From Gammaproteobacteria bacterium (GTDB lineage Bacteria; Pseudomonadota; Gammaproteobacteria; S012-40), in assembly GCA_029881255.1 (NCBI GenBank), contig JAOUMY010000010.1:7319-71318 (forward strand): 64,000 nucleotides of DNA, given 5' to 3'. The position numbers were made by a program, and so were the translations under genes. Positions 4,867 to 58,678 of this stretch are shown here, in pieces; position 1 is the stretch's first letter; each line of letters begins with the position of its first letter. The notes beneath the pieces are model-generated. The model searched no databases and was not told where the DNA came from. It saw only the letters and a program-made list of their open reading frames with translations.

Positions 4867-4937
4867 TGCGCCTCCTTTGAATTCGCTGGTGACAGGCGAG
4901 GTTGCTTGTTGCTTATTTTTATGCCTTGGAGTGGTTG

Positions 4938-5312
4938 ATGGCTACAGTTAATCAATTAGTGCGGAGTCCCCGTAAGCGCAAGAGGGAAAAGACAAATGTA
5001 CCTGCGCTTGAAGGTTGTCCTCAGCGTCGTGGCGTGTGTACTCGTGTTTACACAACGACGCCAAAGAAGCCAAATTCGGCTCTGCGCAAGGTCGCGCGTG
5101 TTCGCCTGACTAATGGTATGGAAGTGACTTCCTATATTGGTGGTGAGGGGCATAATCTTCAGGAGCACTCGGTCATCTTGATTCGTGGTGGTCGTGTTAA
5201 AGATTTGCCAGGTGTGCGTTATCACACCGTGCGCGGAACTCTGGATACGTCAGGCGTGCAAAATCGTCGTCAGGGACGTTCCAAGTATGGCGCGAAGCGT
5301 CCTAAGTCGTAA
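4938..5312 (+). CDS. rpsL: 30S ribosomal protein S12
   Basis: [15 protein letters not shown]…[31 protein letters not shown] aligns along its full length with E. coli S12; ATG at 4938 (track ORF begins earlier at 4902). Confidence 0.95.
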
Positions 5313-5804
<492 letters not shown>

Positions 5805-5828
5805 TTTTCCGGCTCTGGAGATTTGGTC

Positions 5829-7928: not shown

Positions 7929-7959
7929 TTATTAACCTTTATAGTGATGAGGTAGAGCT

Positions 7960-9150
7960 GTGTCCAAGGAAAAATTTGAGCGTAAGAAGCCGCACGTAAA
8001 CGTCGGAACGATCGGTCACGTTGACCACGGTAAGACAACGCTGACAGCGGCGATTACCAAGGTAATGGCGGAAAAGTACGGTGGCGAGTTTAAAGACTAC
8101 GCAAACATCGACAGTGCACCGGAAGAGCGTGCCCGTGGAATCACGATCGCGACCGCCCACGTTGAGTATGAGTCAGCGGCGCGTCACTATGCGCACGTAG
8201 ACTGCCCTGGACACGCGGACTATGTAAAGAACATGATCACTGGTGCGGCACAGATGGACGGCGCGATCCTGGTATGCTCCGCTGCTGATGGCCCAATGCC
8301 ACAGACGCGTGAACACATTCTGTTGTCGCGTCAGGTAGGCGTACCGTATATCGTGGTGTTCCTGAATAAGGCAGACATGGTAGACGACGAAGAATTGATG
8401 GAACTGGTAGAGATGGAAGTGCGTGAACTGCTGTCTTCTTACGAATTCCCAGGTGATGACATTCCGGTAGTAAAAGGTTCAGCCCTGAAGGCACTGGAAG
8501 GCGACACTTCTGAAATCGGCGTACCGGCTGTAGAGGCGCTGGTAGCGGCAATGGACTCTTACTTCCCAGAGCCGGAGCGTGCGATTGATGGCGCATTCAT
8601 CCTGCCAATCGAAGACGTGTTCTCGATCTCCGGTCGTGGCACAGTGGTCACCGGTCGTATCGAGCGTGGCATCGTGAACGTGGGAGATGAAGTGGAAATC
8701 GTGGGCATCAGAGATACGACCAAGACCACGGTTACCGGTGTTGAGATGTTCCGCAAGTTGCTTGATCAAGGTCAGGCGGGTGATAACGTGGGTGTACTGC
8801 TGCGTGGAACCAAGCGTGAAGACGTTGAGCGTGGACAGGTATTGTGTAAGCCGGGCTCGATCAAGCCGCACACGAAGTTTGAAGCGGAAGTGTACGTGCT
8901 GAGCAAGGAAGAAGGTGGTCGTCACACGCCATTCTTCAAGGGATATCGTCCTCAGTTTTATTTCCGTACCACAGACGTAACCGGTGCGTGTGAGTTGCCA
9001 GACGGCGTAGAAATGGTAATGCCAGGTGACAACGTGAACATGAAGGTCGAGCTAATCGCCCCGATTGCAATGGAAGAAGGTCTGCGCTTTGCGATCCGTG
9101 AAGGCGGTCGTACAGTAGGTGCAGGTGTTGTTGCCAAGATTTTTGAGTGA
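7960..9150 (+). CDS. tuf: Elongation factor Tu
   Basis: 396-aa product with [23 protein letters not shown] motifs, near-identical to proteobacterial EF-Tu; GTG start at 7960 preceded by GAGGTAGAG. Confidence 0.95.
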
Positions 9151-10222: not shown

Positions 10223-10840
10223 ATGGAGTTAAAAGTAACCGCATACAATGGTGGCGCCGGATCCAATGTAACTGTCTCCGAAACAGTTTTTCAGCGCGAC
10301 TTTAATGAAGGCCTGATTCATCAGGTAGTGACTGCATATCTTGCTGGTGCACGCGCAGGTACAAGAGCACATAAAAGTCGCTCTGATGTAAGTGGCGGTG
10401 GCGCCAAACCATGGCGTCAAAAAGGTACAGGTCGCGCCCGTGCCGGTACCATCCGTAGTCCTATATGGCGCGGGGGCGGTAAGACTTTCGCTGCTCGCCC
10501 AGTTGATTATTCTCAGAAGGTTAATCGCAAGATGCATCGCGCAGCATTGTGTTCCATTCTGTCTGAATTGGTTCGTCAAGATCGTCTGGTTGTTCTGGAT
10601 AACGTATCTATTGATGCACCCAAAACGAAAGAGTTGGCAGCAAAATTAAAGGGTATGGGGATTGATAACGCGCTGATCGTATCCGCGAATTACGATCAAA
10701 ACCTGCATCTTTCTTCTAGAAACCTTCCATACATAGACGCAGTGGATGTCAGTAAAGTTAATCCTGTAAATCTGATTTCCCATGAGAAGGTTTTGATGTC
10801 AGCGGAAGCGATCAAAAAATTCGAGGAGATGTTGGGATGA
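10223..10840 (+). CDS. rplD: 50S ribosomal protein L4
   Basis: [11 protein letters not shown]…[25 protein letters not shown]… full-length match to L4. Confidence 0.95.
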
Positions 10841-42597: not shown

Positions 42598-43281
42598 ATG
42601 AGCTGCGATTCAATCAAAGATGTGATTATCGACTATGTTGGCGGACAACTGGACAGCGATAACATGGTACGGATTGAAAATCATATTAGTGATTGTGCTC
42701 AGTGTCAGCAAAGGGTTTTGAGGGAACGCGAAATTCGTAGAGCCTTGAGTGAACAGCCGACCGATGCTCCAGATAGTGAGTTTTTCGACAGGATAATGGA
42801 TGACATTGTCCGCAGTTCTGGAGGGCACAAGCATTTTGGGTTTTGGAACGGATTTGCTACAGCAATAGCGGCAGCACTATTCGCCTGGACCGTATTTACA
42901 CCGGCAACCTTAGTCAATACGGAGAACAGCGAATTAACTCAAGCTGTTGTGACACTGAACGCGCAAGTCGATCAGTTGAAAAATGTTCGGATATCATTCG
43001 ACTCTCCAGCGGATTTTGAACAAGTCAGTATGTCCTTATCTCTACCAGATCATGTGGAACTGGTTGGGTATGCTGGCGAACGAGAACTAACGTGGACAAC
43101 GACAATAAGCAAAGGAATAAATATATTAACTTTACCTATTATGGTTAAACATGAAGGAAAAGGGGTGCTGTACGCCACTGTGAGTCGCGCAGGTAAAACA
43201 AAAGTGTTTACCATCAATCTCGATGCGACTGCCAGACAGGAGACATTAATCGATGTCTCGATTAAAAACTTCAGTGTTTGA
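42598..43281 (+). CDS. Zinc-binding (ZAS-type) anti-sigma factor, single-pass membrane protein
   Basis: Starts 3 nt after the sigma gene; HxxxCxxC motif (ENHISDCAQCQ); TM helix FATAIAAALFAWTVFTPA; ~130-aa periplasmic domain. Confidence 0.7.
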   Translation: MSCDSIKDVIIDYVGGQLDSDNMVRIENHISDCAQCQQRVLREREIRRALSEQPTDAPDSEFFDRIMDDIVRSSGGHKHFGFWNGFATAIAAALFAWTVFTPATLVNTENSELTQAVVTLNAQVDQLKNVRISFDSPADFEQVSMSLSLPDHVELVGYAGERELTWTTTISKGINILTLPIMVKHEGKGVLYATVSRAGKTKVFTINLDATARQETLIDVSIKNFSV

Positions 43282-43300
43282 AAGTTACAGGGGAAGACAC

Positions 43301-44218
43301 ATGATGAAGCACACTAATTTAAATACTTTTTTCTTTGCGATGATAGGCGCGTTTTTTCTGAGTCCGGTTTCGGCGCTGGAGACGGCAGATGTCGAAGAGA
43401 TCAGCGTAAGCGTAATCGAAAGCGCTCAAGATGGAATTAAAGAATTCCGTGAACTTGCATTGCCTGCACGAGCATCGACTAGTGCTACTGAACATGCCAA
43501 AGGTTTGGAAAAAGCCAATGATGTGCGCACACGCAATGCGGAAAGATTCAACAGTCGAACAGACGACATGGAAGATGGTGTTGATACTGCGGCGACTCAG
43601 GCTGAAGAACGTAAAGAGGCGGCTATGGCAAAAGCCGCAGCAGCAAAAGCTGCCGGATTGGCAAAGGCTGAAGCAGCAAAAAATCGTGCTGAAGAACAAC
43701 GTGTCCGCGGTCAGGAGCGTGCTGAATTGGCGAAGGAACAGGCAGCTGAAGGTAGAGAGCTTGGTCAGGCCCGCGCCGAAGAGGCTCGACAGAAGCGTGA
43801 GGATGCTGAGGAGATCGCTACAGTCGTGAAGGAACAAGCAGAAACTGCCAAGGCGGCTGCACAGGATCATAAAGCTGCGGCGATGGAAATCGCAGAAACG
43901 GCCAAGGAGCAGGCTGGTGCGAACGCTGATGCAGCGAAGGACGCAGCAGAAGAGCATCGCGCAATAGCCAGTGAAGTTGCCGACCAGGCTCAAGCAATGG
44001 CAGACGATGCGAAAACCAATGCGGATGCTGCCAACGCAATTGCGGAAGAGGCCAAAGGAAATGCAGATGCGGCTAAAGCAAATGCTGACGCAGCCAAAGC
44101 CGCCGCTGGAGACGCACAGGCAAACGCAGATGCAGCCAAGGCCGCTGCGCAAGAAAAGAAAGAACAGGCTCAGACGCGCGCAGACAACGCAAAGAACAAT
44201 CGATTTTCGGCCAACTAG
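43301..44218 (+). CDS. Periplasmic Ala/Glu/Lys-rich low-complexity repeat protein (LEA-/apolipoprotein-like amphipathic helices)
   Basis: RBS AGGGGAAG then ATG 43301; signal MMKHTNLNTFFFAMIGAFFLSPVSA|LE; the rest is (A/K/E/D)-rich with degenerate repeats (…AKAAAAKAAGLAKAEAAKNRAEEQ…, …NADAAKANADAAKAAAGDAQANADAAKAAAQEKKEQ…). The long antisense ORF 43319-44152 is a repeat shadow. Confidence 0.65.
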   Translation: MMKHTNLNTFFFAMIGAFFLSPVSALETADVEEISVSVIESAQDGIKEFRELALPARASTSATEHAKGLEKANDVRTRNAERFNSRTDDMEDGVDTAATQAEERKEAAMAKAAAAKAAGLAKAEAAKNRAEEQRVRGQERAELAKEQAAEGRELGQARAEEARQKREDAEEIATVVKEQAETAKAAAQDHKAAAMEIAETAKEQAGANADAAKDAAEEHRAIASEVADQAQAMADDAKTNADAANAIAEEAKGNADAAKANADAAKAAAGDAQANADAAKAAAQEKKEQAQTRADNAKNNRFSAN

Positions 44219-44325: not shown

Positions 44326-45606
44326 ATGTATTTTAGGGCTAGCATGCTCGCCATGATGCTAACAGGGATGTTTGGGTTTGCCAGTGCCCAGGGGTCAGAA
44401 GACCCGGATTACTTCCGCCTGGGCATAGACGCGTTCAAAAACAAGCAATATGCGCAGGCGATCGAACTGATGCGACTTGCGCGTGAATCAGGTGTTGATG
44501 ACGAAATCTTGGCCTTCAATCTCGGCTCCGCCTTATACCGTTTGCAGGACTATCCGTCTGCGCTCGACGAATTCTCACGTATTTCGACAAACTCCCCTCT
44601 ATTTCCTCGCGTTGAATTCAATCTGGCGTTGATCGCTGTAAAACGTGACAAACTGGATGAGGCGCGTGAGATATTTGTGCGCCTTGAGTCGCAAAACTTA
44701 CCGACACTTTCAGCGATGGCGAGAGAAATGATAATGCGTATTGACGGGGAGCAGAGTCAGTCTGTAGGAACGCATTATCTTTATGTTAGCGTCAGTGGCG
44801 GTATTGAAGATAAGACGCTAGAACCGGAAACAGGCACGCCGGGAGAAGAGACTAATGTGTTCTCCAATATATTGCTACTCGGGTCGACATCCATACTGCC
44901 ATCCCTTATTCGTCACGCCAGTGCCGAAGTCACGATGTTTGGTTTGGTGAACATGCGGCATCAAGAATACGATATCGATATGTTAAATGTGGATCTGGAG
45001 AAGTCCTTTCGCTTTTCAAACGTGTCATTAAAAATTGCACCAGGCGTTGGCGCTATGGGGATGGGCTACAAGCCGTATAGTGGAGACTTGCATATTGGAA
45101 CGGAAGCGAAAATTTCGATCGCAGATATCCTTGATATAAAACCAAGGTATAGTTTTTCGCGTATACAGCACATGTCGGACAATTCTGCGGTTTCCGGGAC
45201 TCAACAAAAAGTCGGTATTCAAACACAATCCGATTTGGAAGAAATACGGCTGCAAGCAGATGTCGTACTTGAGTCCAATAATCGTAATGATACTTCAGAC
45301 ACAACATATCGTATCTATTCACCGAAACGTATTACGGCCCAAGTTGATATTCAATTATTTCGCGAAAGACGGGCATCGCCGAAGTTTATGTTGGAATGGC
45401 GCATAAGTGACTATCCAGCAGTCTCTCACGAGAATCAGCGCAGAGACCAGCGAATCAGGTTCAGGAATGTATCAAATATAAAAATAAATCAGTGGTTAAC
45501 TGCAGTTGCCGATGTCTCGTACACAGAGAATAGCTCATCTCCAAAGACTTCTTTCTCATATAATAGATGGGAGTTTGTTCTCGGGCTCGAGGGAATGTAT
45601 TACTGA
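44326..45606 (+). CDS. Outer-membrane protein: N-terminal periplasmic TPR region + C-terminal beta-barrel (architecture like Slam/DUF560 surface-lipoprotein translocators)
   Basis: Signal MYFRASMLAMMLTGMFGFASA|QGS; ~130 aa of TPR-like helices (…YAQAIELMRLARESG…LGSALYRLQDYPSALDEF…); then ~290 aa of alternating-hydrophobic beta pattern ending …WEFVLGLEGMYY (terminal aromatic). Confidence 0.45.
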   Translation: MYFRASMLAMMLTGMFGFASAQGSEDPDYFRLGIDAFKNKQYAQAIELMRLARESGVDDEILAFNLGSALYRLQDYPSALDEFSRISTNSPLFPRVEFNLALIAVKRDKLDEAREIFVRLESQNLPTLSAMAREMIMRIDGEQSQSVGTHYLYVSVSGGIEDKTLEPETGTPGEETNVFSNILLLGSTSILPSLIRHASAEVTMFGLVNMRHQEYDIDMLNVDLEKSFRFSNVSLKIAPGVGAMGMGYKPYSGDLHIGTEAKISIADILDIKPRYSFSRIQHMSDNSAVSGTQQKVGIQTQSDLEEIRLQADVVLESNNRNDTSDTTYRIYSPKRITAQVDIQLFRERRASPKFMLEWRISDYPAVSHENQRRDQRIRFRNVSNIKINQWLTAVADVSYTENSSSPKTSFSYNRWEFVLGLEGMYY

Positions 45607-45611: not shown

Positions 45612-46964
45612 CTATGGTTCGCCGTGTTTGGTTTCCACCTGGATACCTATTTTTTTCAGGAAAGGTGTCGGTAATATACCCCCAGCGCTGACGATAACGG
45701 CTTGGTTTGGAATTTCCATGACTTCGCCTTCCTGTTCGATAACAACAGAGTCTTCTTTTATTTCTTTCACATTGGAATTGAGAAGTACGCTTAACCGTCC
45801 TTCGGCTTCCTGGGCAGCGACTTTTTCACGATTTTTTTCTGCCGCGCGACTAAAGGCATTGCTACGATAGGAGAGGGTGACGGTGCTTCCCTGTTCTTCT
45901 GCGATACTCGTTGCGGCTTCCAGCGCACTGTTACCACCACCCACCACCAGCACATGCATTCCCTTGTACTGTTCCGGGTCAATGAGGTTATATACGACTT
46001 TCGATTGTTGTTCTCCCGCGACGCCGAGCTTCCGTGGTGAGCCGCGTCGACCAATGGCAAGTAGTACCGCCTTAGTTTCGTATTCACCGTTGGTGCTTTT
46101 TACCAAATAGCCGCCACCGGGCAGAGGTGTAATATTTTCCATGCGCTCCTGGTAGTGGATCTGGACACCGGTTCTTTGCTCTACAGCGTTCCAAAACTCG
46201 AGCAAGGCTTCTTTGTGAGTCTGGTTTATTTTAATCTTTCCGACAATGGGTAACTCCATCGGCTGAGTCATAACCAGTTTACCGCGAGGAAAGTTAAAAA
46301 CGGTTCCGCCAAGAGAGTCCTGCTCGATCGTCACGTAGCGTAAGCCAGATTCGAGTGCGCCCAGGCTTGCAGAAAATCCCGCTGGACCTGCCCCCACGAT
46401 GACGACATCAATTTCCGGTCCGCTAACCGAAGGTAAATATTGCTTGATGTAATCCATTGCTTCTCGCCCCTGAGTCACGGCATTACGTATTAGTCCCATG
46501 CCGCCAAGTTCTCCCGCGATAAACAGGCCTTGCATATTGGTTTCGAAATTGGGCTTGAGTGTTGGGATCTCTACACCGCGTTTTTCTGTGCCAAAAACCA
46601 GAGTGATTGCATCAAGAGGACAGGCAGCTTTACACGCGCCGTGCCCTATGCAATGTGTGGGATTAATTAGTTTCGCTTTTTCTTCGATTAGCCCTAGCAC
46701 GCCACCTTCAGGGCAGGCGGTAACACAGGCTCCACAGCCTATGCATACATTGGGATCAATTATGGGATGTAGAGATGCGGGTTCCGTCAAACCGGCTTCT
46801 TGAACCTTGATATAGGTTTCCAGGCTTTGCTCACTGACGGTGTCACGGCCACGTTTATAGATATAAAAGATGATCGCGATGGGAACGCCGTAAATAAGCG
46901 CATCAACAACATAGGTAGTGAAGGTGGTCCAGATTATGGTGATGAAATCGAAAATTATCTGCAT
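45612..46964 (-). CDS. Membrane-anchored 2x[4Fe-4S] ferredoxin domain fused to FAD/NAD(P)-binding oxidoreductase (thioredoxin-reductase-like fold)
   Basis: N-terminal TM segment (MQIIFDFITIIWTTFTTYVVDALIYGVPIAIIFYIY). Two CxxCxxCxxxCP motifs (CIGCGACVTACP, CIGHGACKAACP). Dinucleotide-binding motifs VVIVGAGPAGFSASL and VLVVGGGNSALEAATSIA. ATG at 46964; track's TTG start at 47018 has no RBS. Confidence 0.65.
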   Translation of the reverse strand: MQIIFDFITIIWTTFTTYVVDALIYGVPIAIIFYIYKRGRDTVSEQSLETYIKVQEAGLTEPASLHPIIDPNVCIGCGACVTACPEGGVLGLIEEKAKLINPTHCIGHGACKAACPLDAITLVFGTEKRGVEIPTLKPNFETNMQGLFIAGELGGMGLIRNAVTQGREAMDYIKQYLPSVSGPEIDVVIVGAGPAGFSASLGALESGLRYVTIEQDSLGGTVFNFPRGKLVMTQPMELPIVGKIKINQTHKEALLEFWNAVEQRTGVQIHYQERMENITPLPGGGYLVKSTNGEYETKAVLLAIGRRGSPRKLGVAGEQQSKVVYNLIDPEQYKGMHVLVVGGGNSALEAATSIAEEQGSTVTLSYRSNAFSRAAEKNREKVAAQEAEGRLSVLLNSNVKEIKEDSVVIEQEGEVMEIPNQAVIVSAGGILPTPFLKKIGIQVETKHGEP

Positions 46965-47043
46965 ATAGGGATCAATATATAACCATTTGGCTTGGACATG
47001 GCGGACAAAGAAGTCCAAATGGAGTAATAACTGGTGCGACCTT

Positions 47044-47382: not shown

Positions 47383-48378
47383 ATGGGAATACTTACAGAC
47401 TTGCCTGAAGCAGGCAAGATTTTGGCGCGTCTGAAATTTATAAGACGTAACGCAGGCAAGTCCGGATCGGGGGAAGGGCGAGCGAGTAGTGTTAAAGAGG
47501 ATGCGATACCTGAAACCGTGATACAGGAAGACAACAAAAAGTTTGGCCGTGAGGCGAAAATCGTTACCACAATATTTGCGGTGCTTGTCGCCGTACTATT
47601 GGTAACGTGGTATAGCTGGCGGGATGAGTATCTGATGAATGCTGAGGATCTGATCTATAACATGGGTCTGATCGGTGGCATCATGATGCTGTTGCAATTC
47701 GTCTATTCCATGCGCAAGCGTGTCGACAAGATGCGCCGTTGGGGCAATCTCCGTTTTTGGTTTCTGTTTCATACCTTCATTGGTTTGTCAGCGCCAACCA
47801 TCATTGTTATCCACAGCCGATTTAGTATTGAGTCCGTCAATGGAGGCGTCGCGTTTTTCTCGATGTTGCTAGTGGTGATTAGCGGTATCGTTGGGCGCTA
47901 CCTCTACAGCCAGGTCAACTTTGATCTAAAAACGGCGCGTCAGGAATTGAAGGAATTGCATCAAACCGTACATGCGGGCGTGTTACAGCACCATCCTGAT
48001 CAACTTCGCGAAATCGAGAATATGCTGAAGCTGTTTATGCTGCACGCATTCGCTAATTCGCACGGTGTGATTCATGCATTTTCTCGGGCGTTTGGGGTGA
48101 GTATCCGGTCTCGACAGTTGTACTGGGCGCTGATTCAGATGCGCCAGATGTCTGCCCCTGGACGAAACGATGGTGCAACGATGGCAATGGACGGAACGCC
48201 AGTGTTTGACAGGGAAGAGCGACGATTACTCAGGATTTATCTCAAGTCGCTGACAAAACTGGCCCGTTACAATGCTTTTAAACATCTGTTTAGTCTGTGG
48301 CGTATCGGACACGTGCCCGTCATCTATTTACTATTGATTACTGGTTTGGCACATGTATTAGCCGTGCACATGTATTGA
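47383..48378 (+). CDS. Integral membrane protein (5 TM), conserved His residues in TM3 and TM5; candidate b-type cytochrome/quinone-interacting subunit
   Basis: RBS GGGAAGGGGA before ATG. TM helices IVTTIFAVLVAVLLVTWY, LIYNMGLIGGIMMLLQFVY, FWFLFHTFIGLSAPTIIVIH, VAFFSMLLVVISGIVGRYLY, HVPVIYLLLITGLAHVLAVHMY. No Pfam-level assignment possible by eye. Confidence 0.5.
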   Translation: MGILTDLPEAGKILARLKFIRRNAGKSGSGEGRASSVKEDAIPETVIQEDNKKFGREAKIVTTIFAVLVAVLLVTWYSWRDEYLMNAEDLIYNMGLIGGIMMLLQFVYSMRKRVDKMRRWGNLRFWFLFHTFIGLSAPTIIVIHSRFSIESVNGGVAFFSMLLVVISGIVGRYLYSQVNFDLKTARQELKELHQTVHAGVLQHHPDQLREIENMLKLFMLHAFANSHGVIHAFSRAFGVSIRSRQLYWALIQMRQMSAPGRNDGATMAMDGTPVFDREERRLLRIYLKSLTKLARYNAFKHLFSLWRIGHVPVIYLLLITGLAHVLAVHMY

Positions 48379-48391: not shown

Positions 48392-49966
48392 TTGGGGCTT
48401 GCGCGTTATTACGGGATTCTGGCGTTAATGTTTACTCTCTTTACATGGCATGGTCAGGCAATGGCCGGTCCAATGGACCGCTTCGAACGCATGGTTATGC
48501 CGGGTAAACTGAGTACGGGGCACGTCAAGTACGAAAAAGACTGCAACAACTGCCATAAACCTTTCGAAAAAGGGGCGCAAAGCGACCTCTGTCTTGATTG
48601 CCACAAGAAGGTCAATAAAGACGTTGTTGATAAAAAGGGTTTTCATGGTCGCGTCCCCAATATCGATACCCGAAAATGTAGTGATTGTCATAAAGAACAT
48701 CGTGGCAGGGATGCCGACATCGTAGCGTTTGATCGCGATACCTTCGATCATGATCGTTCAGACTTTAAGTTAAAAGGTTCTCACACCCGTTTAGGTTGTG
48801 TGAATTGCCATGATCCTAAAACGAAATACCGGGATGCAGGACAGGGATGTGTAGATTGTCATAAGACTGACGATGCCCACGAAAAGCGCTTGGGCGAAAA
48901 ATGCGGCAATTGTCATATTGAAACCGTTTGGGGTGAAGCGCATTACGATCACGACAAAACCAAATTCAAACTGGAGGCAAATCACAAACATGTTGCCTGT
49001 ATCGACTGCCATCCCAACCAGCGATACGAAGAAACACCGAAGGGTTGTTACACATGTCACCAGCTACGCGATGTCCATGAAGGGAATAATGGTAAGAAGT
49101 GTGAGTCCTGCCATAATGCCTATTTCTGGAACGAGATCAAATTTGATCACAATAAAGATACCAAGTATGAACTCGAAGGACGGCATGTTACTGTCGATTG
49201 CCAGTCATGTCATCGCGGCGACGTTTACAAGAAAATTGGCAAGGAGTGTATTAAGTGCCATAAGAAAGAGGATGCCCATCGGGGGTTGTTTGGCGAAAAG
49301 TGCCATGATTGCCATATTTCTCGCTCCTGGTCTAGAGCGACCTTTAATCACAATAAAGACACCAAGTTTGAATTGATTGGTGCACATCGTAAGGTTGATT
49401 GCGTCGCGTGTCATCGTGCGGACGTTTATGCCGATTTGAAAAAAGATTGCTATGCCTGTCACCGTAAGAATGATGTGCACGAAGGGCAGGAAGGAAAGGA
49501 TTGTAAGCATTGTCACAATGAAAAGGGTTGGACTAGTGAAGTGTTTTTCGATCATGATCTGACACGTTTCCCACTGCTAGACAGTCATGCGGTAACTGCA
49601 TGCGAGGAATGTCATTTAACGCCCGCGTTTAAGGATACCGATACCCAATGTTTTTCATGCCACAAAAAGGATGATGAAAAAATACACAAGTTGCGTTTGG
49701 GTGAGAACTGTAGTCTGTGTCATAACTCTAATGACTGGAAGAAATGGTTTTTTGATCACGACAAACAAACAGATTATAAATTGACAGGCGGGCACAAAGG
49801 GCTGGATTGTCATGCCTGTCATACCAAACCTGTAAAGAAAGAAATCAAGCTGAGTGATAAGTGCGTGGATTGTCATGAGCAGGATGACTACCACCACGGA
49901 GCCTTTGGTCGTGAATGCGCCAGATGCCACATAACAGAATCCTTTAAGAAAGTGATTATGAATTGA
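48392..49966 (+). CDS. Periplasmic multiheme cytochrome c, 21 CxxCH motifs arranged as seven tandem c7-type triheme modules
   Basis: Signal MGLARYYGILALMFTLFTWHGQAMA|GP. 21 CxxCH counted. Recurrent module FDH(D/N)K(T/D)xF(K/E)LxGxHxxVxCxxCH … CxxCH…D(A/V)H…G…CxxCH resembles Geobacter PpcA/c7 and the GSU1996-type c7 polymer. Confidence 0.85.
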   Translation: MGLARYYGILALMFTLFTWHGQAMAGPMDRFERMVMPGKLSTGHVKYEKDCNNCHKPFEKGAQSDLCLDCHKKVNKDVVDKKGFHGRVPNIDTRKCSDCHKEHRGRDADIVAFDRDTFDHDRSDFKLKGSHTRLGCVNCHDPKTKYRDAGQGCVDCHKTDDAHEKRLGEKCGNCHIETVWGEAHYDHDKTKFKLEANHKHVACIDCHPNQRYEETPKGCYTCHQLRDVHEGNNGKKCESCHNAYFWNEIKFDHNKDTKYELEGRHVTVDCQSCHRGDVYKKIGKECIKCHKKEDAHRGLFGEKCHDCHISRSWSRATFNHNKDTKFELIGAHRKVDCVACHRADVYADLKKDCYACHRKNDVHEGQEGKDCKHCHNEKGWTSEVFFDHDLTRFPLLDSHAVTACEECHLTPAFKDTDTQCFSCHKKDDEKIHKLRLGENCSLCHNSNDWKKWFFDHDKQTDYKLTGGHKGLDCHACHTKPVKKEIKLSDKCVDCHEQDDYHHGAFGRECARCHITESFKKVIMN

Positions 49967-52242
49967 TGTTGTCGATACGGAAAATTTATATCGTCATGTG
50001 TGTATTGCTTGCTGGACTGGGTCCAGTGCCAGTTTACGCAAGTACGATATTGACATCGGTGGATTACTCAAGTGACGAAAACTCCATCTATATCAAAGCG
50101 AATTTTGGCGACATCGTGAACTATGAAAAACACTTTCCGCGCAGCCGTGGGAAAATAATTCAAATTCAGATCAGCATGCCAGGTAAGGTTTTTACTGAAA
50201 CACAATTAAAGCGTCGAGAAACCATTGAGCCGGATGAAAATGCACCATCGGTGATACGTGACATCATATACGAAGGAAACGTTAGAGGTGGTCCGTATCT
50301 GGTTTTACGGTTTTCCTCTGTGGTGACGTTTAAACTCGACGAAAGCAAGGGCTCCAAGGTATTGACGGTAACAATTGATCGCAAAGAGCTCGAGGCGTTA
50401 CAGACGCCAGCTGTAACACAGCAGCCAAGCACGGATGTTAGTGAAGAAGAAAGTCGTGCAACCAGTCTAATGGATCAGGGGCGCAGAGCCTTAACTATGG
50501 GACAGAACAGTGAAGCCATTCTTTTCTTCAGTGACATACTGGGCATGCCGGAAAGTCGTTTTACGCAGGATGCCCGTGAGTATCTTGGATTGGCGCGTGA
50601 GCGAAATGGGCAATTGGATCTCGCAAAAAAGGAATATGAAGCCTATCTCAAAAGTTACGAAAAGAGTCCAAAGGCTAACACCGTCAGGCAGCGCTTGATG
50701 ACGCTAGAGGCGCGTATCGTACAGATGGAACGCCGGCTGAAGGACGGTAAGCGAACCGGAACCACTTCAGTTGCTGCGGCTAGACCTGCAGATTTATTTG
50801 GCCGCGTGGCTATTCAATCGTATAACGCAGGGCTGCGAAAAGAGGGTGAATCAACACCCGATTACGCTCAAGGGCGTATTCTGGCATTTACCGATCTCAA
50901 TCAGCGTTGGCGTGACAAGGACAAAGATGCGCGACTTAGTTTTAGCGGAACCATGGATTACGATCTAATCCGTTCTCGTTCCTCGTCAACAACATTGCAG
51001 GACACAGAAAAGCCCCGATACGAAGCACGTATACGCTCCCTATTCGGTGAATACAAAGGGCGAACAAATAATATACACGGCAGTTTCGGGCGTCAGTCTG
51101 TTAACAGTGGTGGTGTACTCGGTCGTTTCGACGGCGCGATGTTGGGGTATCAACTCAAGAATAAACTATCCGTTTATGGTGTTGTCGGTTTGCCGGTCGA
51201 CTATGAAGACAATCTCACCCCGCAAACCAATAAGCCCATGTTCGGCGGACGCCTAGACGTCAATGAGATCGCTAAGTATTGGAAGGCGTCGGTCTACGGT
51301 ATTCAGCAACAAGTTGATGGTATTCTCGAAAGACGGGCCGTCGGTGGAGATTTGCGCTATTTCTTCGAGAACAAGGTTTTTTACTCGCTGGTGGATTACG
51401 ATGCTTCATATGGAGTCTGGAATTTTCTCACTGGGCACTATGGCTGGCAGGTGAACAAGCGCCTGAAACTGGATGTGCATGCAGACCGGCGTCGTTCTCC
51501 TGTGATGTTGACAAGCAATGCGTTGCGTCGGCTTTCGGTTTTAACCAGTGCTTCAGATAAGAATAAAGCCATGGGAGAACTAGATATATCCGACGAGGCT
51601 GTATTCAACAGACTGACCAATGAGTCAACAATTAAAGATCTTCTAGACGCCAAAGTTTCCGAAGCGACTATCCGACAACTGGCGCTTGATCAAACCGGAG
51701 AATCGTCGTTATATACGGTAGGCATGAACTACGAACTTCGCAAAGATATCAGCCTTATCGCAAATCTCACTATATCAAGTTATGAGGCTGGTAAAGCGCA
51801 AGATATAGATGCTACTGAGGAAATGCCTGAGGAACCCGATCCTAAAGCGATCATTGAATCCCCGTTTTTAAAGGGCGATGTTGATATGATAGGTTCTGTC
51901 CAATTGGTGCGGCGCAATATGTACCGCGAGCGGGACGTCGTGCTTGCCGGATTGAGTTTTTCCATTAACGAACGCAATAAGCGTTATACCGGTAATGTCG
52001 CATTGCGCACACCTTATAAAGAAAAGTGGTGGTTGGATTTGCGTGGACGGGCGATCTATTCAGACAACATTGAACATGGTACTCAGGCGCTTAAGGTCTC
52101 GCCCACGGCGCGTACAGAATACCGCTATGACCGCCGCCTGACCTTTGAGTTGGAGGTGGGGGCGGACTATACCCGATCTACCGGTGCTAACGAGGATTTG
52201 TTTTGGTTTTTTGGCAATGCCGGCTTTCGCTACATGTTCTAA
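49966..52242 (+). CDS. Large outer-membrane beta-barrel (porin component of a porin-cytochrome conduit, MtrB/PioB-like role) with N-terminal soluble domain and TPR-like segment
   Basis: ATG overlaps cytochrome stop (TGATG). Signal MLSIRKIYIVMCVLLAGLGPVPVYA|ST. An N-terminal ~110-aa domain; an alpha-helical TPR-like stretch (…EAILFFSDILGMPESRFTQDAREYLGLARERNGQLDLAKKEYEAYLKSY…); then >450 aa of amphipathic beta-strand pattern ending …FGNAGFRYMF (C-terminal Phe). Confidence 0.6.
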   Translation: MLSIRKIYIVMCVLLAGLGPVPVYASTILTSVDYSSDENSIYIKANFGDIVNYEKHFPRSRGKIIQIQISMPGKVFTETQLKRRETIEPDENAPSVIRDIIYEGNVRGGPYLVLRFSSVVTFKLDESKGSKVLTVTIDRKELEALQTPAVTQQPSTDVSEEESRATSLMDQGRRALTMGQNSEAILFFSDILGMPESRFTQDAREYLGLARERNGQLDLAKKEYEAYLKSYEKSPKANTVRQRLMTLEARIVQMERRLKDGKRTGTTSVAAARPADLFGRVAIQSYNAGLRKEGESTPDYAQGRILAFTDLNQRWRDKDKDARLSFSGTMDYDLIRSRSSSTTLQDTEKPRYEARIRSLFGEYKGRTNNIHGSFGRQSVNSGGVLGRFDGAMLGYQLKNKLSVYGVVGLPVDYEDNLTPQTNKPMFGGRLDVNEIAKYWKASVYGIQQQVDGILERRAVGGDLRYFFENKVFYSLVDYDASYGVWNFLTGHYGWQVNKRLKLDVHADRRRSPVMLTSNALRRLSVLTSASDKNKAMGELDISDEAVFNRLTNESTIKDLLDAKVSEATIRQLALDQTGESSLYTVGMNYELRKDISLIANLTISSYEAGKAQDIDATEEMPEEPDPKAIIESPFLKGDVDMIGSVQLVRRNMYRERDVVLAGLSFSINERNKRYTGNVALRTPYKEKWWLDLRGRAIYSDNIEHGTQALKVSPTARTEYRYDRRLTFELEVGADYTRSTGANEDLFWFFGNAGFRYMF

Positions 52243-52284
52243 GCAGGACTATAATTTGGCTAAAACAGGTCGATAATTACAGTT

Positions 52285-52734
52285 ATGAATAGCGGATTTC
52301 TTAATTGGAAGAACATCATACTGGGTACGATAGCCATTCTGACTGTCGTGTCCGGTGTAAAAATGATGCAGACTCCGTCCAATATCCTGGCTGATGTGCT
52401 GGTGGCCGAACACCGAGGCAGCCTGGAGTTACAAATCAAGTTTAATATCCCTGTTCGTTATGAGGATCATACGCCCAAAAACTCCGGGCATATTGTCCAG
52501 ATCAAGGTGCGTCCGGTCAGTTTTAGCGATACAGGTAAGAACGAATACTTGGGCAGCGAAACGATTCTGCCTGGCTTTGCGGCACAGGTACCGATTACTG
52601 ATGTCGCCTATGAAGGCGCTGTGCCTGGCGGCCCTCTACTTACCCTGCGTTTTAGCAAGCCTGTGACGTTTACTGTTACAGAAGATGCTGATTTCTCAAG
52701 TATTATCCTTCATCTTCGACGAAGCGACAGCTAA
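52285..52734 (+). CDS. Small membrane-anchored protein paralogous to the N-terminal domain of the upstream beta-barrel
   Basis: N-terminal TM/signal anchor (NIILGTIAILTVVSGV). Residues 35-149 align with barrel residues ~30-140 (shared …I.QI…ETI.P…I.D..YEG.V.GGP.L.LRFS..VTF…E… pattern). Confidence 0.5.
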   Translation: MNSGFLNWKNIILGTIAILTVVSGVKMMQTPSNILADVLVAEHRGSLELQIKFNIPVRYEDHTPKNSGHIVQIKVRPVSFSDTGKNEYLGSETILPGFAAQVPITDVAYEGAVPGGPLLTLRFSKPVTFTVTEDADFSSIILHLRRSDS

Positions 52735-52949: not shown

Positions 52950-55900
52950 ATGGGGAAGGGGACGACTTTGTTCACCGAATTGGTGAAGCGCCCGCATTTC
53001 GGCTTTGCGCTTTACCCGCCTTTAGGCTTTATTTTTCTCCGAAAACTGTTAGTGGCAGTTGCAATGCCTGTTTTTTTGGCCTTGCTTATGTCGCTTGCTC
53101 CAGGCGTTGTATCGGCCGACGAAATCGTTGTTCCTGCGGATTTTGACCACAATGCCACTGGCTTTCCACTACAAGGCCAGCATGAACGCATCCGCTGCGA
53201 ATTTTGCCATAGAAACGAAGTTTTCCGCGGCACGCCAGTCAAATGCGATGCGTGCCATAACGATATCATCGCCCCCGGAAAACACGCCAAGCACATCCCT
53301 ACGCTGGAGCAATGTAGCGACTGCCATGTGCCCTCGGGGTTTGATATCTCCGCGCGCATGGATCACTCCCGTATTACGCGGCCTTGTGGCGCCTGCCACA
53401 ACGGCAATCTTGCCCAAGGTAAAACCGTCAATCATATACCCACCAATGAAACCTGTGATACCTGCCATACCACAGGCATTGCATGGAGCCCAAGTCTGTT
53501 CGATCACGTTGGTATTGTTGATGGGTGTCTGTTATGTCACAACAGCGTAAATGCGCGCGGCAAAGGCATGGGCCACATACTGGTGCAGGATGAATGTCAG
53601 GCCTGTCACACGACGCAGTTGTGGAGTGTGCCGTCCAATAGCGTCAATCATAACTTTGTAATCGGAAGCTGTGAGAGCTGTCATAACGGTGCCGTTGCCT
53701 CAGGAAAACCGGCTACGCATATCCCAACCACAGATTCCTGTGATACTTGCCACAAAGACATCGGCCGTAGTTGGCATAGTCAGGCAGGCTTTACAGAATT
53801 GCATGCGATGTTAACCGAAGGATGTCCCTTGTGTCATACCGGGGTTAGCGCGCGCGGAAAAACTATTGATCACATATTGTCGAGCGAACGCTGTGAGTCG
53901 TGTCATACCCCCACCAGTAGTTCATTTTTGGTGTTGCGTAATCCCAAACCAGACCACGCAGAAATCGTAGGGAGCTGCGTCAACTGTCATAACAACAGTC
54001 GCTCGGTTGGTAAGAATATCACTCACATCAACAGTACGAATCAATGTCAAGCCTGCCACGAAATCGTGACTTTCAGCATTGTTCCGAAAGTGGATCACAA
54101 TGAAGTCCTGGGAGTGTGCGGTGCTTGCCATAATAACGTGATTGCAACCGGTAAGGGGCCGAACCACATAGCGACACAAGAGGCGTGTGATGTATGCCAT
54201 GCAACCACGGCCTGGTTACCTACACAGTTCGATCACTCAAATTTTGATACCAGTAATTGCCAGAGTTGTCACAATGGCTTCCAGGCTACGGGCAAACAAA
54301 CGGGACACATCGCATCGACAGAAAAATGCGATGCCTGCCATACCACAGGTGTGTCGTGGACGGTATTGTTAGTAGATCACACGCAGACGCTTGGTGATAC
54401 CTGCGAGACGTGTCACAACAATGTTCTCGCTCGTGGTAAAGGACCTACGCATATCATTACGCAACAGGACTGCGGAATATGTCACACCCCCAACACTCCC
54501 TGGTTACAGAATGCGTTTGATCACCAGGGCGTAAGTGGTAATTGCGCGACATGTCATAACGGCTTGCTTGCTCGCGGCAAGTCACAGTCACACATATCGT
54601 CAACGGATGTGTGTGAAGCGTGTCATGCAATTGGAAACTGGGCCCCGTTGACGGTGGATCATACAGAAGTTGTAGGTGGGTGTGTCAATTGTCACAACGG
54701 CGCAATATCCACTGGAAAAAATAACGGACATATCAGTACCAGTAATGAATGTGGCGCTTGCCATAGTACGACGCAATGGAAACCTGCCGTACGCGTTGAT
54801 CACAATGAGGTGCAGGGAAAATGCGAAAGCTGTCACAATGGAAAAGTGTCACAGGGTAAAGATCTGCAGCACATCCTTTCCACAGGTGAATGTAACGCGT
54901 GTCACAATACTACGCAGTGGACTCCCGCCATTACTGTTGATCATCATGAGGTGATTGGCGAATGTGCCACGTGTCACAATGGCACGATTGCGCGAGGAAA
55001 GGGGGCGCAACATGTGCCCACGACTGAAAATTGTTCCGCATGTCACTCGACTACATTGTGGCAGCCAGTCACCAAGGTCGACCACTCTGAAATCGCTGAA
55101 AGCACAAGTTGCTTTGAATGTCACAACGGTGTATTGGCTCAAGGTAAATCCACGCTGCATATCGCTTCAACAAATGCTTGCGAAGCGTGTCACCTGGTCG
55201 CCGCGTGGATGCCTGCAAAATTTGTCGATCATAATGAGGTTTTGGGCAATTGTGTTACTTGTCACAACGGTGTTGTGACTAGAGGAAAATCTGCGTACCA
55301 CGTGAAAAGCACTGATGACTGTGACGGATGCCATAGCGTTACGGAGTGGTCGCCTGCAAAATTTGTCGATCATGAATTCATTCTTGGAACATGTGACGTT
55401 TGTCATAATGGCAGCATTGCAAGAGGCAAAGGTACTCTCCACTTTAATACGTCGAATACGTGCGAAGCCTGTCATTCAGTTACGCTTTGGACGCCAGTGA
55501 TTACAGTGGATCATAGTCAGGTGATTGGAAGTTGTTTTTCCTGCCACAACAACAATCCTGTACCTGGCAAAAGCAGACTACATATTGCGACCACTGATCT
55601 TTGCGAGGCCTGTCATAACACCACATCGTGGACGCCGGCAACAACAGTGGATCACAGTGAAGTTATTGGTGAATGCCAGAGCTGTCACGGACAGGGAGGG
55701 CGCGCCGCGGGTAAGAATCCTGGACACATGCAAACGACAGATGTGTGTGGAGCGTGTCATTTCACAACAGCATGGAAGCCAGTAGTGAGTGTCGATCACA
55801 AACAAGTTCTGGGGGAGTGCGAGACTTGCCACAATGGAGATATTGCCATTGGAAAAAATCCTGCGACGCATATTCTATCTTCCGATCAGTGTTCTGCCTG

Positions 55901-56498
55901 TCATATCACCAGTACCTGGATAACCATACGTGTCGATCATACGCAGGTCTTGGGGGCATGTGTTGATTGCCACAATATGCCTGTGCAACATATCAATACC
56001 ACCAATCTGTGCGTTGAATGTCACTCCACGACACGTTGGAGTCCAGTCGTACTAGTGGATCATGCTCAGGTGAATGGCGTGTGTTCCTCCTGCCATAATT
56101 TACCCGCAGGACATATTGCGTCGACCAATGTTTGTGATGCCTGCCATAACACCACGCGCTGGCGGCCAACAGTGGCTGTAGATCATGCCCAGGTATTGGG
56201 ATCGTGTGCCGATTGCCATTTTCTGCCGGCCTTTCACATTACCGCCACGACAGCATGTGATGCTTGTCATAGAACCGAATCCTGGGTTCCTTTTACTGTT
56301 GATCACAATGAAGTATTGGGATCATGTGAAAGCTGTCACCCAGCACCCGGTGACCACCTCGCCGCTGGCGTAACAAACAATTGTCAGAACTGCCATTCAA
56401 CAACGACCTGGACAGGTGCTACTAGTCCACTTCCCGGGGCAGCTGGCGCGAGCGTGTCGGGAGTATCGGCAACTGCGGCTGGTGGTGGTCATATGTAA
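52950..56498 (+). CDS. Giant multiheme cytochrome c with 47 CxxCH motifs, built from ~27-aa tandem repeats (candidate extracellular/outer-surface electron conduit)
   Basis: 1182-aa ORF; signal peptide (alt. start ATG 53064: MPVFLALLMSLAPGVVSA|DE). 47 CxxCH counted by eye. Near-periodic unit C-x-x-C-H-(N/T)-x5-7-W-x-P-x4-(V/F)-D-H-x-(E/Q)-V-x-G-x-C-x-x-C-H-N-G-x2-A-x-G-K-x3-H-I-x-(T/S)-x3-C. No TM segment after the signal. Confidence 0.85.
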   Translation: MGKGTTLFTELVKRPHFGFALYPPLGFIFLRKLLVAVAMPVFLALLMSLAPGVVSADEIVVPADFDHNATGFPLQGQHERIRCEFCHRNEVFRGTPVKCDACHNDIIAPGKHAKHIPTLEQCSDCHVPSGFDISARMDHSRITRPCGACHNGNLAQGKTVNHIPTNETCDTCHTTGIAWSPSLFDHVGIVDGCLLCHNSVNARGKGMGHILVQDECQACHTTQLWSVPSNSVNHNFVIGSCESCHNGAVASGKPATHIPTTDSCDTCHKDIGRSWHSQAGFTELHAMLTEGCPLCHTGVSARGKTIDHILSSERCESCHTPTSSSFLVLRNPKPDHAEIVGSCVNCHNNSRSVGKNITHINSTNQCQACHEIVTFSIVPKVDHNEVLGVCGACHNNVIATGKGPNHIATQEACDVCHATTAWLPTQFDHSNFDTSNCQSCHNGFQATGKQTGHIASTEKCDACHTTGVSWTVLLVDHTQTLGDTCETCHNNVLARGKGPTHIITQQDCGICHTPNTPWLQNAFDHQGVSGNCATCHNGLLARGKSQSHISSTDVCEACHAIGNWAPLTVDHTEVVGGCVNCHNGAISTGKNNGHISTSNECGACHSTTQWKPAVRVDHNEVQGKCESCHNGKVSQGKDLQHILSTGECNACHNTTQWTPAITVDHHEVIGECATCHNGTIARGKGAQHVPTTENCSACHSTTLWQPVTKVDHSEIAESTSCFECHNGVLAQGKSTLHIASTNACEACHLVAAWMPAKFVDHNEVLGNCVTCHNGVVTRGKSAYHVKSTDDCDGCHSVTEWSPAKFVDHEFILGTCDVCHNGSIARGKGTLHFNTSNTCEACHSVTLWTPVITVDHSQVIGSCFSCHNNNPVPGKSRLHIATTDLCEACHNTTSWTPATTVDHSEVIGECQSCHGQGGRAAGKNPGHMQTTDVCGACHFTTAWKPVVSVDHKQVLGECETCHNGDIAIGKNPATHILSSDQCSACHITSTWITIRVDHTQVLGACVDCHNMPVQHINTTNLCVECHSTTRWSPVVLVDHAQVNGVCSSCHNLPAGHIASTNVCDACHNTTRWRPTVAVDHAQVLGSCADCHFLPAFHITATTACDACHRTESWVPFTVDHNEVLGSCESCHPAPGDHLAAGVTNNCQNCHSTTTWTGATSPLPGAAGASVSGVSATAAGGGHM

Positions 56499-56561: not shown

Positions 56562-57329
56562 ATGATGAGATCAGTTTGGCCTCAAGCAGTTATTGTGTTG
56601 ATTTTACTGAATGCTTGTGGCGTTGTCATAGATAGTTTGGGCACGGAAAATAAATCGAGTATCAGTGTTGATGAACAGGATATCGATTTGTACAGCCGCG
56701 TGGTAGTGTCAAAACTGGATATTGATCGTGACAGCTTCCTGGTAATTCAGGAAAGTGACGCGTTGGATCTCCCGTCGACTGTATTATTCAGCAAGCGTTA
56801 CCTGGCTGGGCTTTACGATGATGAGATCATCGAATTAGAGAAACCAGTTGAAGCGTCAACATCTGGTGATGGCCTGTTTTTGCTACATGCGAGTGTTTTT
56901 TCGGATACCAATGAAAACGGTGTTTTTGATGAAGGAGTAGACAAAGTAGCTCGTGACGCTTCGGGAAACGCCATAGGCACCAGTTTTCGGATGAAAGAAA
57001 CGGATTTGTCGGCCCATGTTGCTGTGAGTCTTTCTTCCAACGGAAATTCGGATTATGTCTGGACAGAAGTATCAGACGTTCTGGACGCATTTGAAATCAA
57101 CACAGATACGCTAGCGATTACGATGGAGGAAGGGCGTAAGTATCGGATTATAAATACGCAATCCACGAGTCACCCTCTGTCATTTCGAGATGCTAGCGGT
57201 AATATTATCTGGCGGCAAGGAGCTGGAAGTGAATTCGTAGTGGACGTGAGCGAAGAGTTTGCGCAAAATGTAGCGTCTTATCGCTGTGTAACGCATTTCC
57301 TAATGAAGGGCGGCGTAGGAATAAAATAA
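56562..57329 (+). CDS. Hypothetical lipoprotein downstream of the 47-heme cytochrome
   Basis: RBS AAGAGGGATGG; signal MMRSVWPQAVIVLILLNA|CGVV (lipobox LLNAC); acidic, beta-rich mature protein; ends …CVTHFLMKGGVGIK. Confidence 0.55.
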   Translation: MMRSVWPQAVIVLILLNACGVVIDSLGTENKSSISVDEQDIDLYSRVVVSKLDIDRDSFLVIQESDALDLPSTVLFSKRYLAGLYDDEIIELEKPVEASTSGDGLFLLHASVFSDTNENGVFDEGVDKVARDASGNAIGTSFRMKETDLSAHVAVSLSSNGNSDYVWTEVSDVLDAFEINTDTLAITMEEGRKYRIINTQSTSHPLSFRDASGNIIWRQGAGSEFVVDVSEEFAQNVASYRCVTHFLMKGGVGIK

Positions 57330-57532: not shown

Positions 57533-58678
57533 ATGAAGTCTTTTCTTTCTGGGATTCTAGCAGTTTTATCTCTGTCACCGGTCGCCTATGCCCAATCCGT
57601 TTCGATGCGTTATCTGGATCTGTTCATAGAGGGCGGCGCGACCGCTGGGTATTACTTTTCGGGCACAAGCTACGATAAAAATTTCAATACTTTCAGTTCG
57701 TATTCGCAATTTGAATTCAATCGCAATGCGGAAAATATTTTGTTAAATGATGCCTTGCTCGAGCTGCGCACAGGGCCATTACATGTCATGAATACTGAGT
57801 TCAGGATGGGGATGGGGCATTTGTCGAGGCTGACAATCCTGGATGGAAACGGCAATCTTGCGTTAGGGTCGCAGTACATACAGCAAGCACCTGTGAGCTC
57901 CACTTCCAGTCAGGACTTGAATGTCACGCGACGTCAACTCGAAGCGGAACTGATCCAATCTCAACGGGACGATGTCAATATCTATTACGCGCAGATGGCC
58001 ATATCTCCTGCGCCTTATGTGTTGTTGGAAGCGGGACGTTTGGCAACACATCTGGGTTATGAAGTCAGTCCCAGTTACACCAACTGGAATAGTGGTTTTG
58101 GCCTGGTGTGGATGAAGCAGCCGACGTACTACAATGGTTTTCGGTTGTCGTATGAGTTTGAAAAGTTGAATGCCTATCTTGAATTCAATCAGGACGACAG
58201 TTTCGCACGAACACCGGCGGTAGTTGCCGGTCTGTTCGGTAAATCGGCAGATATGCGCTATTCGGCGGCATTTTACTTTTCAGACTATGGGCATAATTTG
58301 TTTGACGCCATGGTGGAATCGGGATTTGATCGGGTAACGATTGCGGCGAATATCGATGTCCATATTGTTCAAGGCTCGGCGCAAGACATAAACAACCGTG
58401 TGAGTCTTGCCGCCGCCGTCTATTTAATCCCGCATATCATGCGATTTGATTTACCACTTCGATTGGAAATAATAAGAGATAGTCAGGCGGGTATGTATGA
58501 TATGAGTCGTGGATACTCTCTTACGTTTACCCCAACCGCACGGCTCGCAGAAAACTTTTTTGTACGTGCCGAGTTCGCTTTCATTTCCTCCTACAATGGT
58601 ATTTTTCGTGGTCTGCAAGACGAGCTCGTTTACTATGAAAAAACCGATTACTCCCTTCAGTTCGGCTACTACTTCTAA
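57533..58678 (+). CDS. Hypothetical outer-membrane beta-barrel protein (381 aa)
   Basis: RBS GGGGAG; signal MKSFLSGILAVLSLSPVAYA|QS; Tyr/Gly/Ser-rich alternating pattern throughout; C-terminus …DYSLQFGYYF (terminal Phe). Confidence 0.55.
   Translation: MKSFLSGILAVLSLSPVAYAQSVSMRYLDLFIEGGATAGYYFSGTSYDKNFNTFSSYSQFEFNRNAENILLNDALLELRTGPLHVMNTEFRMGMGHLSRLTILDGNGNLALGSQYIQQAPVSSTSSQDLNVTRRQLEAELIQSQRDDVNIYYAQMAISPAPYVLLEAGRLATHLGYEVSPSYTNWNSGFGLVWMKQPTYYNGFRLSYEFEKLNAYLEFNQDDSFARTPAVVAGLFGKSADMRYSAAFYFSDYGHNLFDAMVESGFDRVTIAANIDVHIVQGSAQDINNRVSLAAAVYLIPHIMRFDLPLRLEIIRDSQAGMYDMSRGYSLTFTPTARLAENFFVRAEFAFISSYNGIFRGLQDELVYYEKTDYSLQFGYYF

Follow-up and report, generated by a model that had tools for sequence, protein, structure and literature searches.

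What does a porin-cytochrome gene cluster gain from encoding the same periplasmic domain twice, once at the N-terminus of its outer-membrane barrel protein and once as a separate small protein? This question is raised by a 64,000-nucleotide stretch of contig JAOUMY010000010.1 (assembly GCA_029881255.1; a Gammaproteobacteria bacterium of lineage S012-40), which we call the window, where a porin gene and the gene for a 149-amino acid (aa) protein lie among genes for multiheme cytochromes. The original prediction, made from the letters of the window, held that the N-terminal domain of the barrel protein is duplicated in the small protein, and suggested that the two copies either dock with each other across the periplasm or bind the same partner. 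Our analysis upholds the duplication and makes a common partner the more likely of the two, with peptidoglycan as the best candidate.

BLASTP aligned residues 27-127 of the barrel protein with residues 32-133 of the small protein at 38% identity and 52% positives (E = 5e-16), and the alignment includes the motifs IxQI, ETIxP and YEGxVxGGPxLxLRFSxxVTF. A profile-profile comparison by hhalign of 58 barrel homologs (N-termini) with 14 homologs of the small protein extended over 120 columns, with a probability of 99.9% and E = 3e-33. Two motifs, HFP (a near-invariant His-x-Pro) and YEGxVxGGPxLxLRF, are common to both copies and very strongly conserved. From these alignments we conclude that the two proteins carry paralogous copies of a periplasmic domain of ~115 residues, as had been claimed, and both open reading frames (ORFs) are as described. 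The original prediction had also named poor conservation of the small ORF next to the barrel as a possible refutation. We found the small gene beside the porin gene wherever the context was visible, a position kept in at least 8 independent contigs, and its 14 homologs (35-74% identity) have intact ORFs of 142-155 aa with 29 invariant positions.

The window's free copy is closer to its own fused copy (34-38% identity) than to other fused copies (27%), and a neighbour-joining distance tree placed the free and fused copies of the window's clade together. The bootstrap of this grouping was only 10%; the free copy may have arisen by a clade-specific duplication of the domain of its own porin, or may belong to the older free lineage and have changed its place. 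One independent recent duplication is supported, in locus L022 only (bootstrap 87%, 43% identity).

The genes around the pair point to the kind of system to which it belongs. PCC3 clusters were defined by He et al. (2017, Front Microbiol 8:1584), with Slit_1446-1449 of Sideroxydans lithotrophicus as an example, by an inner-membrane protein of ~300 aa with five transmembrane helices, the motif WX3HX13H in both helix three and helix five, and SGXXG in helix four; by periplasmic and extracellular cytochromes with a median of 21 and 34 hemes, respectively; and by an extracellular cytochrome that is very large, repetitive and rich in small residues. In the window, an inner-membrane protein of 331 aa has five hydrophobic segments, two WX3HX13H motifs at 126-144 (W126-H130-H144) and 306-324 (W306-H310-H324), and SGIVG at 167. 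The gene that follows codes for a periplasmic cytochrome with exactly 21 CXXCH motifs, the number of hemes first counted from the sequence, and adjoins the porin gene with overlapping stop and start codons; beyond the small gene lies a very large, low-complexity cytochrome (1182 aa, 47 CXXCH), the predicted extracellular component. Because the motifs of the inner-membrane protein and the 21 and 47 hemes fit the published definition, we assign the operon to the PCC3-type porin-cytochrome clusters. Its host is a gammaproteobacterium, as are many of the published carriers.

In later papers PCC3 appears as a four-gene cluster that begins with the inner-membrane protein and continues with the periplasmic cytochrome, the extracellular cytochrome and the porin. 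The window departs from this order in that the porin is not last: the inner-membrane protein is followed by the 21-heme cytochrome, the porin, the small protein and the 47-heme cytochrome. The same gene set is found with homologs of this barrel, in the published order, in ~50 related loci, among them loci of Sedimenticolaceae, Hyphomicrobium and Methylococcaceae, and the published order prevails in the gene neighbourhoods examined. This context of its homologs supports, indirectly, the assignment of the barrel as a PCC3 porin. The plus-strand genes between 47383 and 56498 are separated by 13, -1, 42 and 215 bases, and a scan for promoters and terminators within the operon gave no signal above chance. 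The overlap of -1 is a TGATG junction (window 49961-49970), in which the stop codon that ends the 21-heme cytochrome gene overlaps the porin's ATG at 49966; this suggests translational coupling of the two genes. A public gene model of the porin (P0015, 738 aa) starts 21 residues further in and would lose the signal peptide. Coordinates of all features are given in Table 1.

Table 1. Features of the PCC3-type cluster and its conserved neighbour, in positions of the window
Feature	Position	Strand	Basis
PCC3-type inner-membrane protein, 331 aa, predicted di-heme b-type	47383..48378	+	Five hydrophobic segments and motifs
Periplasmic multiheme cytochrome, 524 aa, exactly 21 CXXCH	48392..49966	+	CXXCH count; Pfam Cytochrome_C7, c3
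PCC3-type porin, 758/759 aa	49966..52242 (ORF from 49963; ATG 49966 the likely start)	+	AlphaFold (pLDDT 87.3); homologs; context
Fused domain copy, porin residues ~27-140	50041..50382	+	BLASTP, hhalign; strands 30-139, pLDDT ~90
TPR-like helical segment, porin residues ~161-255	50443..50727	+	Pfam TPR_16, model helices, homologs
Beta-barrel, porin residues ~277-758, ~22 strands	50791..52239	+	DSSP of AlphaFold model
Small protein, 149 aa: hydrophobic N-terminal segment, then free domain copy	52285..52734	+	14 homologs; porin adjacency
Hydrophobic segment, small-protein residues ~8-28	52306..52368	+	Hydropathy peak 10-28; model helix 8-28
Free domain copy, small-protein residues ~32-147	52378..52725	+	AlphaFold (pLDDT 85); Foldseek AMIN
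Very large multiheme cytochrome, 1182 aa, 47 CXXCH, 24 Cytochrome_C7 stretches	52950..56498	+	CXXCH count; Pfam
Membrane-anchored 4Fe-4S ferredoxin and FAD/NAD(P) reductase	45612..47018	-	NCBIfam YpdA-like reductase, ferredoxin models

In the AlphaFold model of the porin (predicted local distance difference test, pLDDT, 87.3), a signal peptide is followed by a beta-sandwich (residues 30-139), a disordered linker, a set of helices (161-255) and the barrel (277-758), with the fused copy starting directly behind a VYA↓S cleavage site. The TPR-like helices that had been proposed between the N-terminal domain and the barrel are there: besides the helices of the model, a sub-threshold Pfam match to TPR_16 covers residues 171-236 (E = 0.0038), NCBIfam gives weak matches to BamD and YbgF, and TPR matches are on record in homologs. 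These helices had been called unusual for Mtr-type porins. An Mtr-type classification of the barrel did not hold, since no MtrB or PioB match was found in the barrel with Pfam at E<=0.1, nor among the top 50 structural matches of the whole 759-aa model; the barrel is assigned instead to the PCC3 family, throughout which the TPR segment is constant. Those 50 Foldseek matches were generic porins, AlgE, FimD and other ushers, and BcsC barrels, and were thus uninformative as a guide to the N-terminal domain. The ~22 strands of the model differ from the up to 42 transmembrane regions predicted for PCC3 porins in 2017. We also observed helical inserts in the barrel at residues 517-577 and 611-632 (51511-51693 and 51793-51858), partly conserved, which follow the ~13th and ~15th strands and may form a surface-loop subdomain or a plug.

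What kind of domain is duplicated is best seen in the model of the small protein (pLDDT 85), which consists of a helix (residues 8-28) and an eight-strand beta-sandwich (35-145). The top three Foldseek matches of this model, as well as the match at rank 24, are AMIN domains: the B2 domain of PilQ in 4aqz (E = 3.3e-3, probability 1.00, TM-score 0.44-0.46), AmiC in 4bin, and PilQ in 4av2 and 3jc8_Qa. The modelled eight-strand beta-sandwich has its best structural matches, with moderate scores, in AMIN domains. Neither copy was matched by Pfam or NCBIfam, a sequence search of the PDB with the domain profile returned nothing significant, and the AMIN-like family PF24837 was matched weakly by 2 of the 39 domain members scanned (best E = 0.042). 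Since support at the sequence level is lacking, we call the domain AMIN-like in fold and do not file it as a member of the AMIN family; the suggestion of an AMIN-like fold agrees with the best structural matches, and not with the profile searches.

In its setting the domain also resembles AMIN (PF11741; 4bin; 4aqz). In the model it is, like AMIN, an eight-strand periplasmic sandwich of ~100-115 residues that lies N-terminally in an outer-membrane channel protein, and both occur in solo proteins and in fusions to TPR; AMIN-TPR and solo AMIN architectures are listed in general terms in the AMIN survey of de Souza et al. (2008). It shares with AMIN a periplasmic place at the N-terminus of envelope proteins, and stands directly behind the signal peptide in porins and in free proteins alike. 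The two differ in that no significant sequence or profile similarity connects them, and in the HFP and YEGxVxGGPxLxLRF motifs of the window's domain. In one porin (locus L064, 8482-10578) the N-terminal slot is occupied not by the new domain but by canonical AMIN (PF11741, E = 2e-13), and the gene upstream encodes the new domain as a free copy. We regard the domain as an undescribed, unannotated family that is the characteristic N-terminal module of PCC3-type porins.

To see how the two copies are deployed across this family we turned to relatives of the barrel. At least 794 homologs of the barrel protein were found, and an exhaustive search (E<=1e-3) retrieved 2887 representative clusters; since its profile spanned the whole barrel (716 positions), this number measures the size of the porin family and is not a census of the domain. 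A word-index search with the domain alignment found 20 proteins only. A scan with one genome per species gave 530 barrel relatives, of which the best 80 loci were studied, and the survey of arrangements covers 85 places, namely 84 related loci (a few of them duplicates or truncated) and the window. The studied loci come from Gammaproteobacteria, Nitrospirota, Nitrospinaceae, Desulfuromonadales, Thermodesulfobacteriota, Omnitrophota, Hyphomicrobium, Planctomycetales and Verrucomicrobiota.

In scans with hidden Markov models, nearly every porin had the domain N-terminally, and a free copy lies beside the porin in 39 of the 85 places. Almost half of the places (42/85) have the fused copy only. 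In 18 places the fused copy is accompanied by a free copy of 150-170 aa encoded immediately upstream of the porin, and 17 of these 18 porins have a SPOR domain as well; locus L023, with free copies both upstream and downstream, is counted among the 18. The arrangement of the window, with a fused copy, no SPOR and a free copy immediately downstream, is seen in 6 places, with 2 truncated ones besides. Finally, in ~13 places a free copy lies upstream of a porin that has no fused copy. These porins have signal peptides of their own, followed by one or two SPOR domains, so that they represent genuine two-gene arrangements; the domain can therefore be supplied in cis, in trans or in both ways.

In the long porins, Pfam coordinates put SPOR behind the domain and ahead of the TPR segment, and an SH3_3 domain is added in P0097 and L023. 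We considered whether SPOR serves as a replacement for the domain and rejected this, as SPOR usually has this place between domain and TPR, and loss of the domain is confined to some of the porins. As judged from the domain matches, porins of this family have repeatedly taken into their periplasmic arm modules of kinds known to bind peptidoglycan (SPOR, SH3 and AMIN). The free copies at SPOR-type loci (L018, L019, L031, L057, L064, L066, L070 and L076) often have a conserved cysteine in a short C-terminal tail (for example ..SPCDP..) that could serve for a disulfide bond with a partner; the window's clade lacks it. At L061, the domain matches the C-terminal end of a 914-aa ORF (5694-8438) whose reading frame differs from that of the large cytochrome gene which it overlaps; rather than a fusion, this is probably a gene for a free copy that starts inside the ORF.

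In either gene order, the free gene is always flanked by the genes for the large cytochrome and the porin. The order porin, small protein, large cytochrome is found in the window and in L005, L089 and L090, and also, with an insertion, in L087, where a gene for a 1042-aa predicted lipoprotein with fn3 and four CXXCH motifs (4664-7792, minus strand) stands on the opposite strand between the porin and small genes. Four loci (L001-L004) have an intact small gene, but of the large cytochrome either nothing or a 100-aa remnant, and in their clade the conserved histidine of the domain is replaced in the free copies. At L001 and L002 an ORF of ~100 aa after the small gene (10434-10733) keeps the N-terminal FDHxxTGFPL motif of the large cytochrome, has no CXXCH, and looks like a remnant of the lost extracellular cytochrome. 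A much larger lineage of free copies exists in other phyla.

Whether the small protein is anchored in the membrane, as had been assumed, depends on its N-terminus. Most free copies in other loci have a classical AxA↓Q (xxA↓QP) signal-peptide site, and should therefore be soluble periplasmic proteins. The window's protein has a single N-terminal hydrophobic segment with a run of 15 uncharged residues and no AxA cleavage motif; across its clade the run measures 15-17 residues, as compared to 12-26 in other free copies, and AxA is missing at the aligned position. Only an 8-residue link separates the hydrophobic segment from the domain, and there is no C-terminal extension. Rules based on hydrophobicity and AxA could not tell a signal anchor from a cleaved signal peptide here: the segment may be a signal anchor or a non-canonical signal peptide, and it is possible that the small proteins of this clade are held in the membrane by an uncleaved signal anchor.

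Several observations bear on what the two copies do. The AMIN-like fold together with the SPOR, SH3 and AMIN companions makes peptidoglycan the best candidate partner, and the small gene has stayed whole in loci with a decayed large cytochrome (L001-L004). We therefore favour, with a probability of about 0.5, a model drawn from sequence comparisons and predicted structures in which the AMIN-like domain and the TPR helices would form an arm in the periplasm beneath the barrel. This arm would position or anchor the conduit at the peptidoglycan layer, scaffold the long cytochromes where they cross the wall, or both. The free copy would be an accessory subunit with the same task, performed in trans, and with the same partner as the fused copy, and would not primarily be an inner-membrane bridge; in the window's clade it may in addition stay tethered to the inner membrane via an uncleaved signal anchor. 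Several points weigh against this model. The likeness to AMIN is structural only, moderate (TM-score 0.44 over the whole chain, E = 3e-3) and derived from a predicted structure; none of the 39 domain members matched PF11741 at E<=1; and hhalign gave a probability of 0.3% against the AMIN domain of E. coli AmiC alone and of 1.4% (P = 0.036) against a three-sequence AMIN profile, the latter in register over the first four strands. AMIN has nothing that corresponds to the HFP and YEGxVxGGPxLxLRF motifs, which could mark a site for another ligand, for example a cytochrome. SPOR is mostly added to the domain rather than put in its place, so that the domain need not itself bind peptidoglycan; such binding is putative, and the function of PCC3 itself is a candidate one. 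A more elaborate version seems rather improbable to us: the free and fused copies and the TPR arm would together form a peptidoglycan collar around the 21-heme cytochrome at its crossing of the wall, a dedicated device for passage and localisation by analogy with the AMIN domains that place type IV pilus secretins, with an additional attachment to the inner membrane, in the window's clade, through the free copy's uncleaved anchor.

The main rival to peptidoglycan as the partner is a cytochrome, although we consider it unlikely that both copies bind the 21-heme or the large cytochrome in transit, acting at the barrel's mouth as a dock or as a chaperone for assembly. The constant place of the free gene between the cytochrome and porin genes would be in line with such a role, as would the L087 locus, where the small gene has stayed beside the large cytochrome gene after the insertion parted it from the porin. 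So would the coupling of the porin gene to the 21-heme cytochrome gene, and the near-invariant His-x-Pro and the YEG...GGP loop common to both copies could provide the binding site. However, it is precisely this histidine that is replaced in the free copies of the clade of L001-L004, loci where the small gene has outlived the large cytochrome, and both the fold and its companion domains speak for the cell wall. Somewhat less probable again is the docking bridge of the original prediction, in which the small protein, anchored in the inner membrane, would pair with the fused copy of the porin and so link the two membranes around the cytochrome wire. The anchor-like N-terminus kept across the window's clade (modelled helix 8-28, no AxA), the recurrence of fused-plus-free pairs and the closeness of the window's free copy to its own fused copy all agree with it. 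Yet the 8-residue link leaves no extension for spanning the periplasm, the hydrophobic run is of the same length as those within the cleavable signal peptides of other free copies, most free copies have AxA↓Q sites, and 42 of the 85 places have no free copy at all. Since free copies also occur alongside porins that lack the fused domain (~13 places), the free copy cannot in general act by docking onto the fused one, and periplasm-spanning docking is unlikely as a general mechanism. From the arrangements compared, it is more likely that the two copies have one partner in common, which they bind on the porin's periplasmic side. There remains the reading that the porin gene was once partly duplicated in tandem and that the small ORF is what is left, decaying and without function. 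The ORF does consist of little but the leader and first domain of its neighbour, and has no known function; but the intact ORFs of its 14 homologs down to 35% identity, their invariant positions, the position kept across contigs and the much larger lineage of free copies in other phyla speak for a maintained gene, and this conservation in effect excludes the remnant.

The peptidoglycan-positioning model that we favour has parallels in other envelope systems. In BcsC, PgaA and AlgK/AlgE, an outer-membrane barrel is likewise combined with a periplasmic TPR arm, and BcsC is among the Foldseek matches of the porin. GspB/OutB and PilP are small accessory proteins that, as set out for OutB, tie a secretin channel to the wall or inner membrane. 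None of these has a sequence relationship to the window's proteins, and they export polysaccharide or protein, whereas the window's porin lies among multiheme cytochrome genes. MtrCAB and MtoAB share the logic of a periplasmic multiheme cytochrome leading through an outer-membrane barrel to an extracellular cytochrome outside, but the heme counts in the window are far higher and its barrel has no MtrB/PioB match. The MtrB barrel has 26 strands and is not known to have a periplasmic AMIN-like or TPR arm. Heme counts can be higher still among the cytochromes that adjoin the porin in other loci, with 89 CXXCH in 2148 aa in L016 (Omnitrophota), 73 in 1825 aa in L075 and 62 in 1574 aa in L069; the 89 motifs of L016 are more than the highest number cited by He et al. 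(2017), 85 hemes.

PCC3 clusters occur widely and are candidate systems, of putative function, for taking up extracellular electrons or oxidising iron; the literature has modelled them as four parts. The type of cluster is already known; the domain, the TPR arm and the fifth gene are newly described here. The PCC3 literature that we found makes no mention of an N-terminal domain of the porin, a TPR segment or a small fifth gene, and the supplementary files of He et al. (2017) contain no porin sequences and no domain information. The conserved periplasmic arm of the porin, made up of the AMIN-like domain and TPR and often supplemented by SPOR, SH3 or AMIN, and the fifth small protein encoded by nearly half of the surveyed clusters as a free copy of the domain, would imply an attachment of these conduits to the cell wall and perhaps, as for pilus secretins, their placement at particular sites. 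This should be of moderate interest to the field of extracellular electron transfer. With the help of the domain family, PCC3 porins could also be recognised and errors in their gene models put right.

The cluster is bordered upstream by a ferredoxin-reductase gene, a homolog of which adjoins the gene for the inner-membrane protein, in divergent orientation, in ~30 related loci. It is a conserved neighbour of PCC3 clusters and no part of the duplication; the main text of He et al. (2017) does not list it among the PCC3 components, and mentions an Fe-S gene for PCC4. Ahead of it lies a plus-strand gene (44326-45606) for a 426-aa protein with an N-terminal TPR region (weak TPR_Slam match, E = 6.7e-4) and a strand-rich C-terminal part, of which no homolog was found near the porin in other loci. 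Another plus-strand gene just upstream of the cluster (43253-44218) codes for a 321-aa low-complexity protein that is rich in Ala, Lys and Glu and has a signal peptide. Downstream of the 47-heme cytochrome, also on the plus strand, are genes for a DUF7282 protein with a lipoprotein signal (LLNA↓C; 56562-57329) and for a BBP2/OmpL-like porin (57533-58678).

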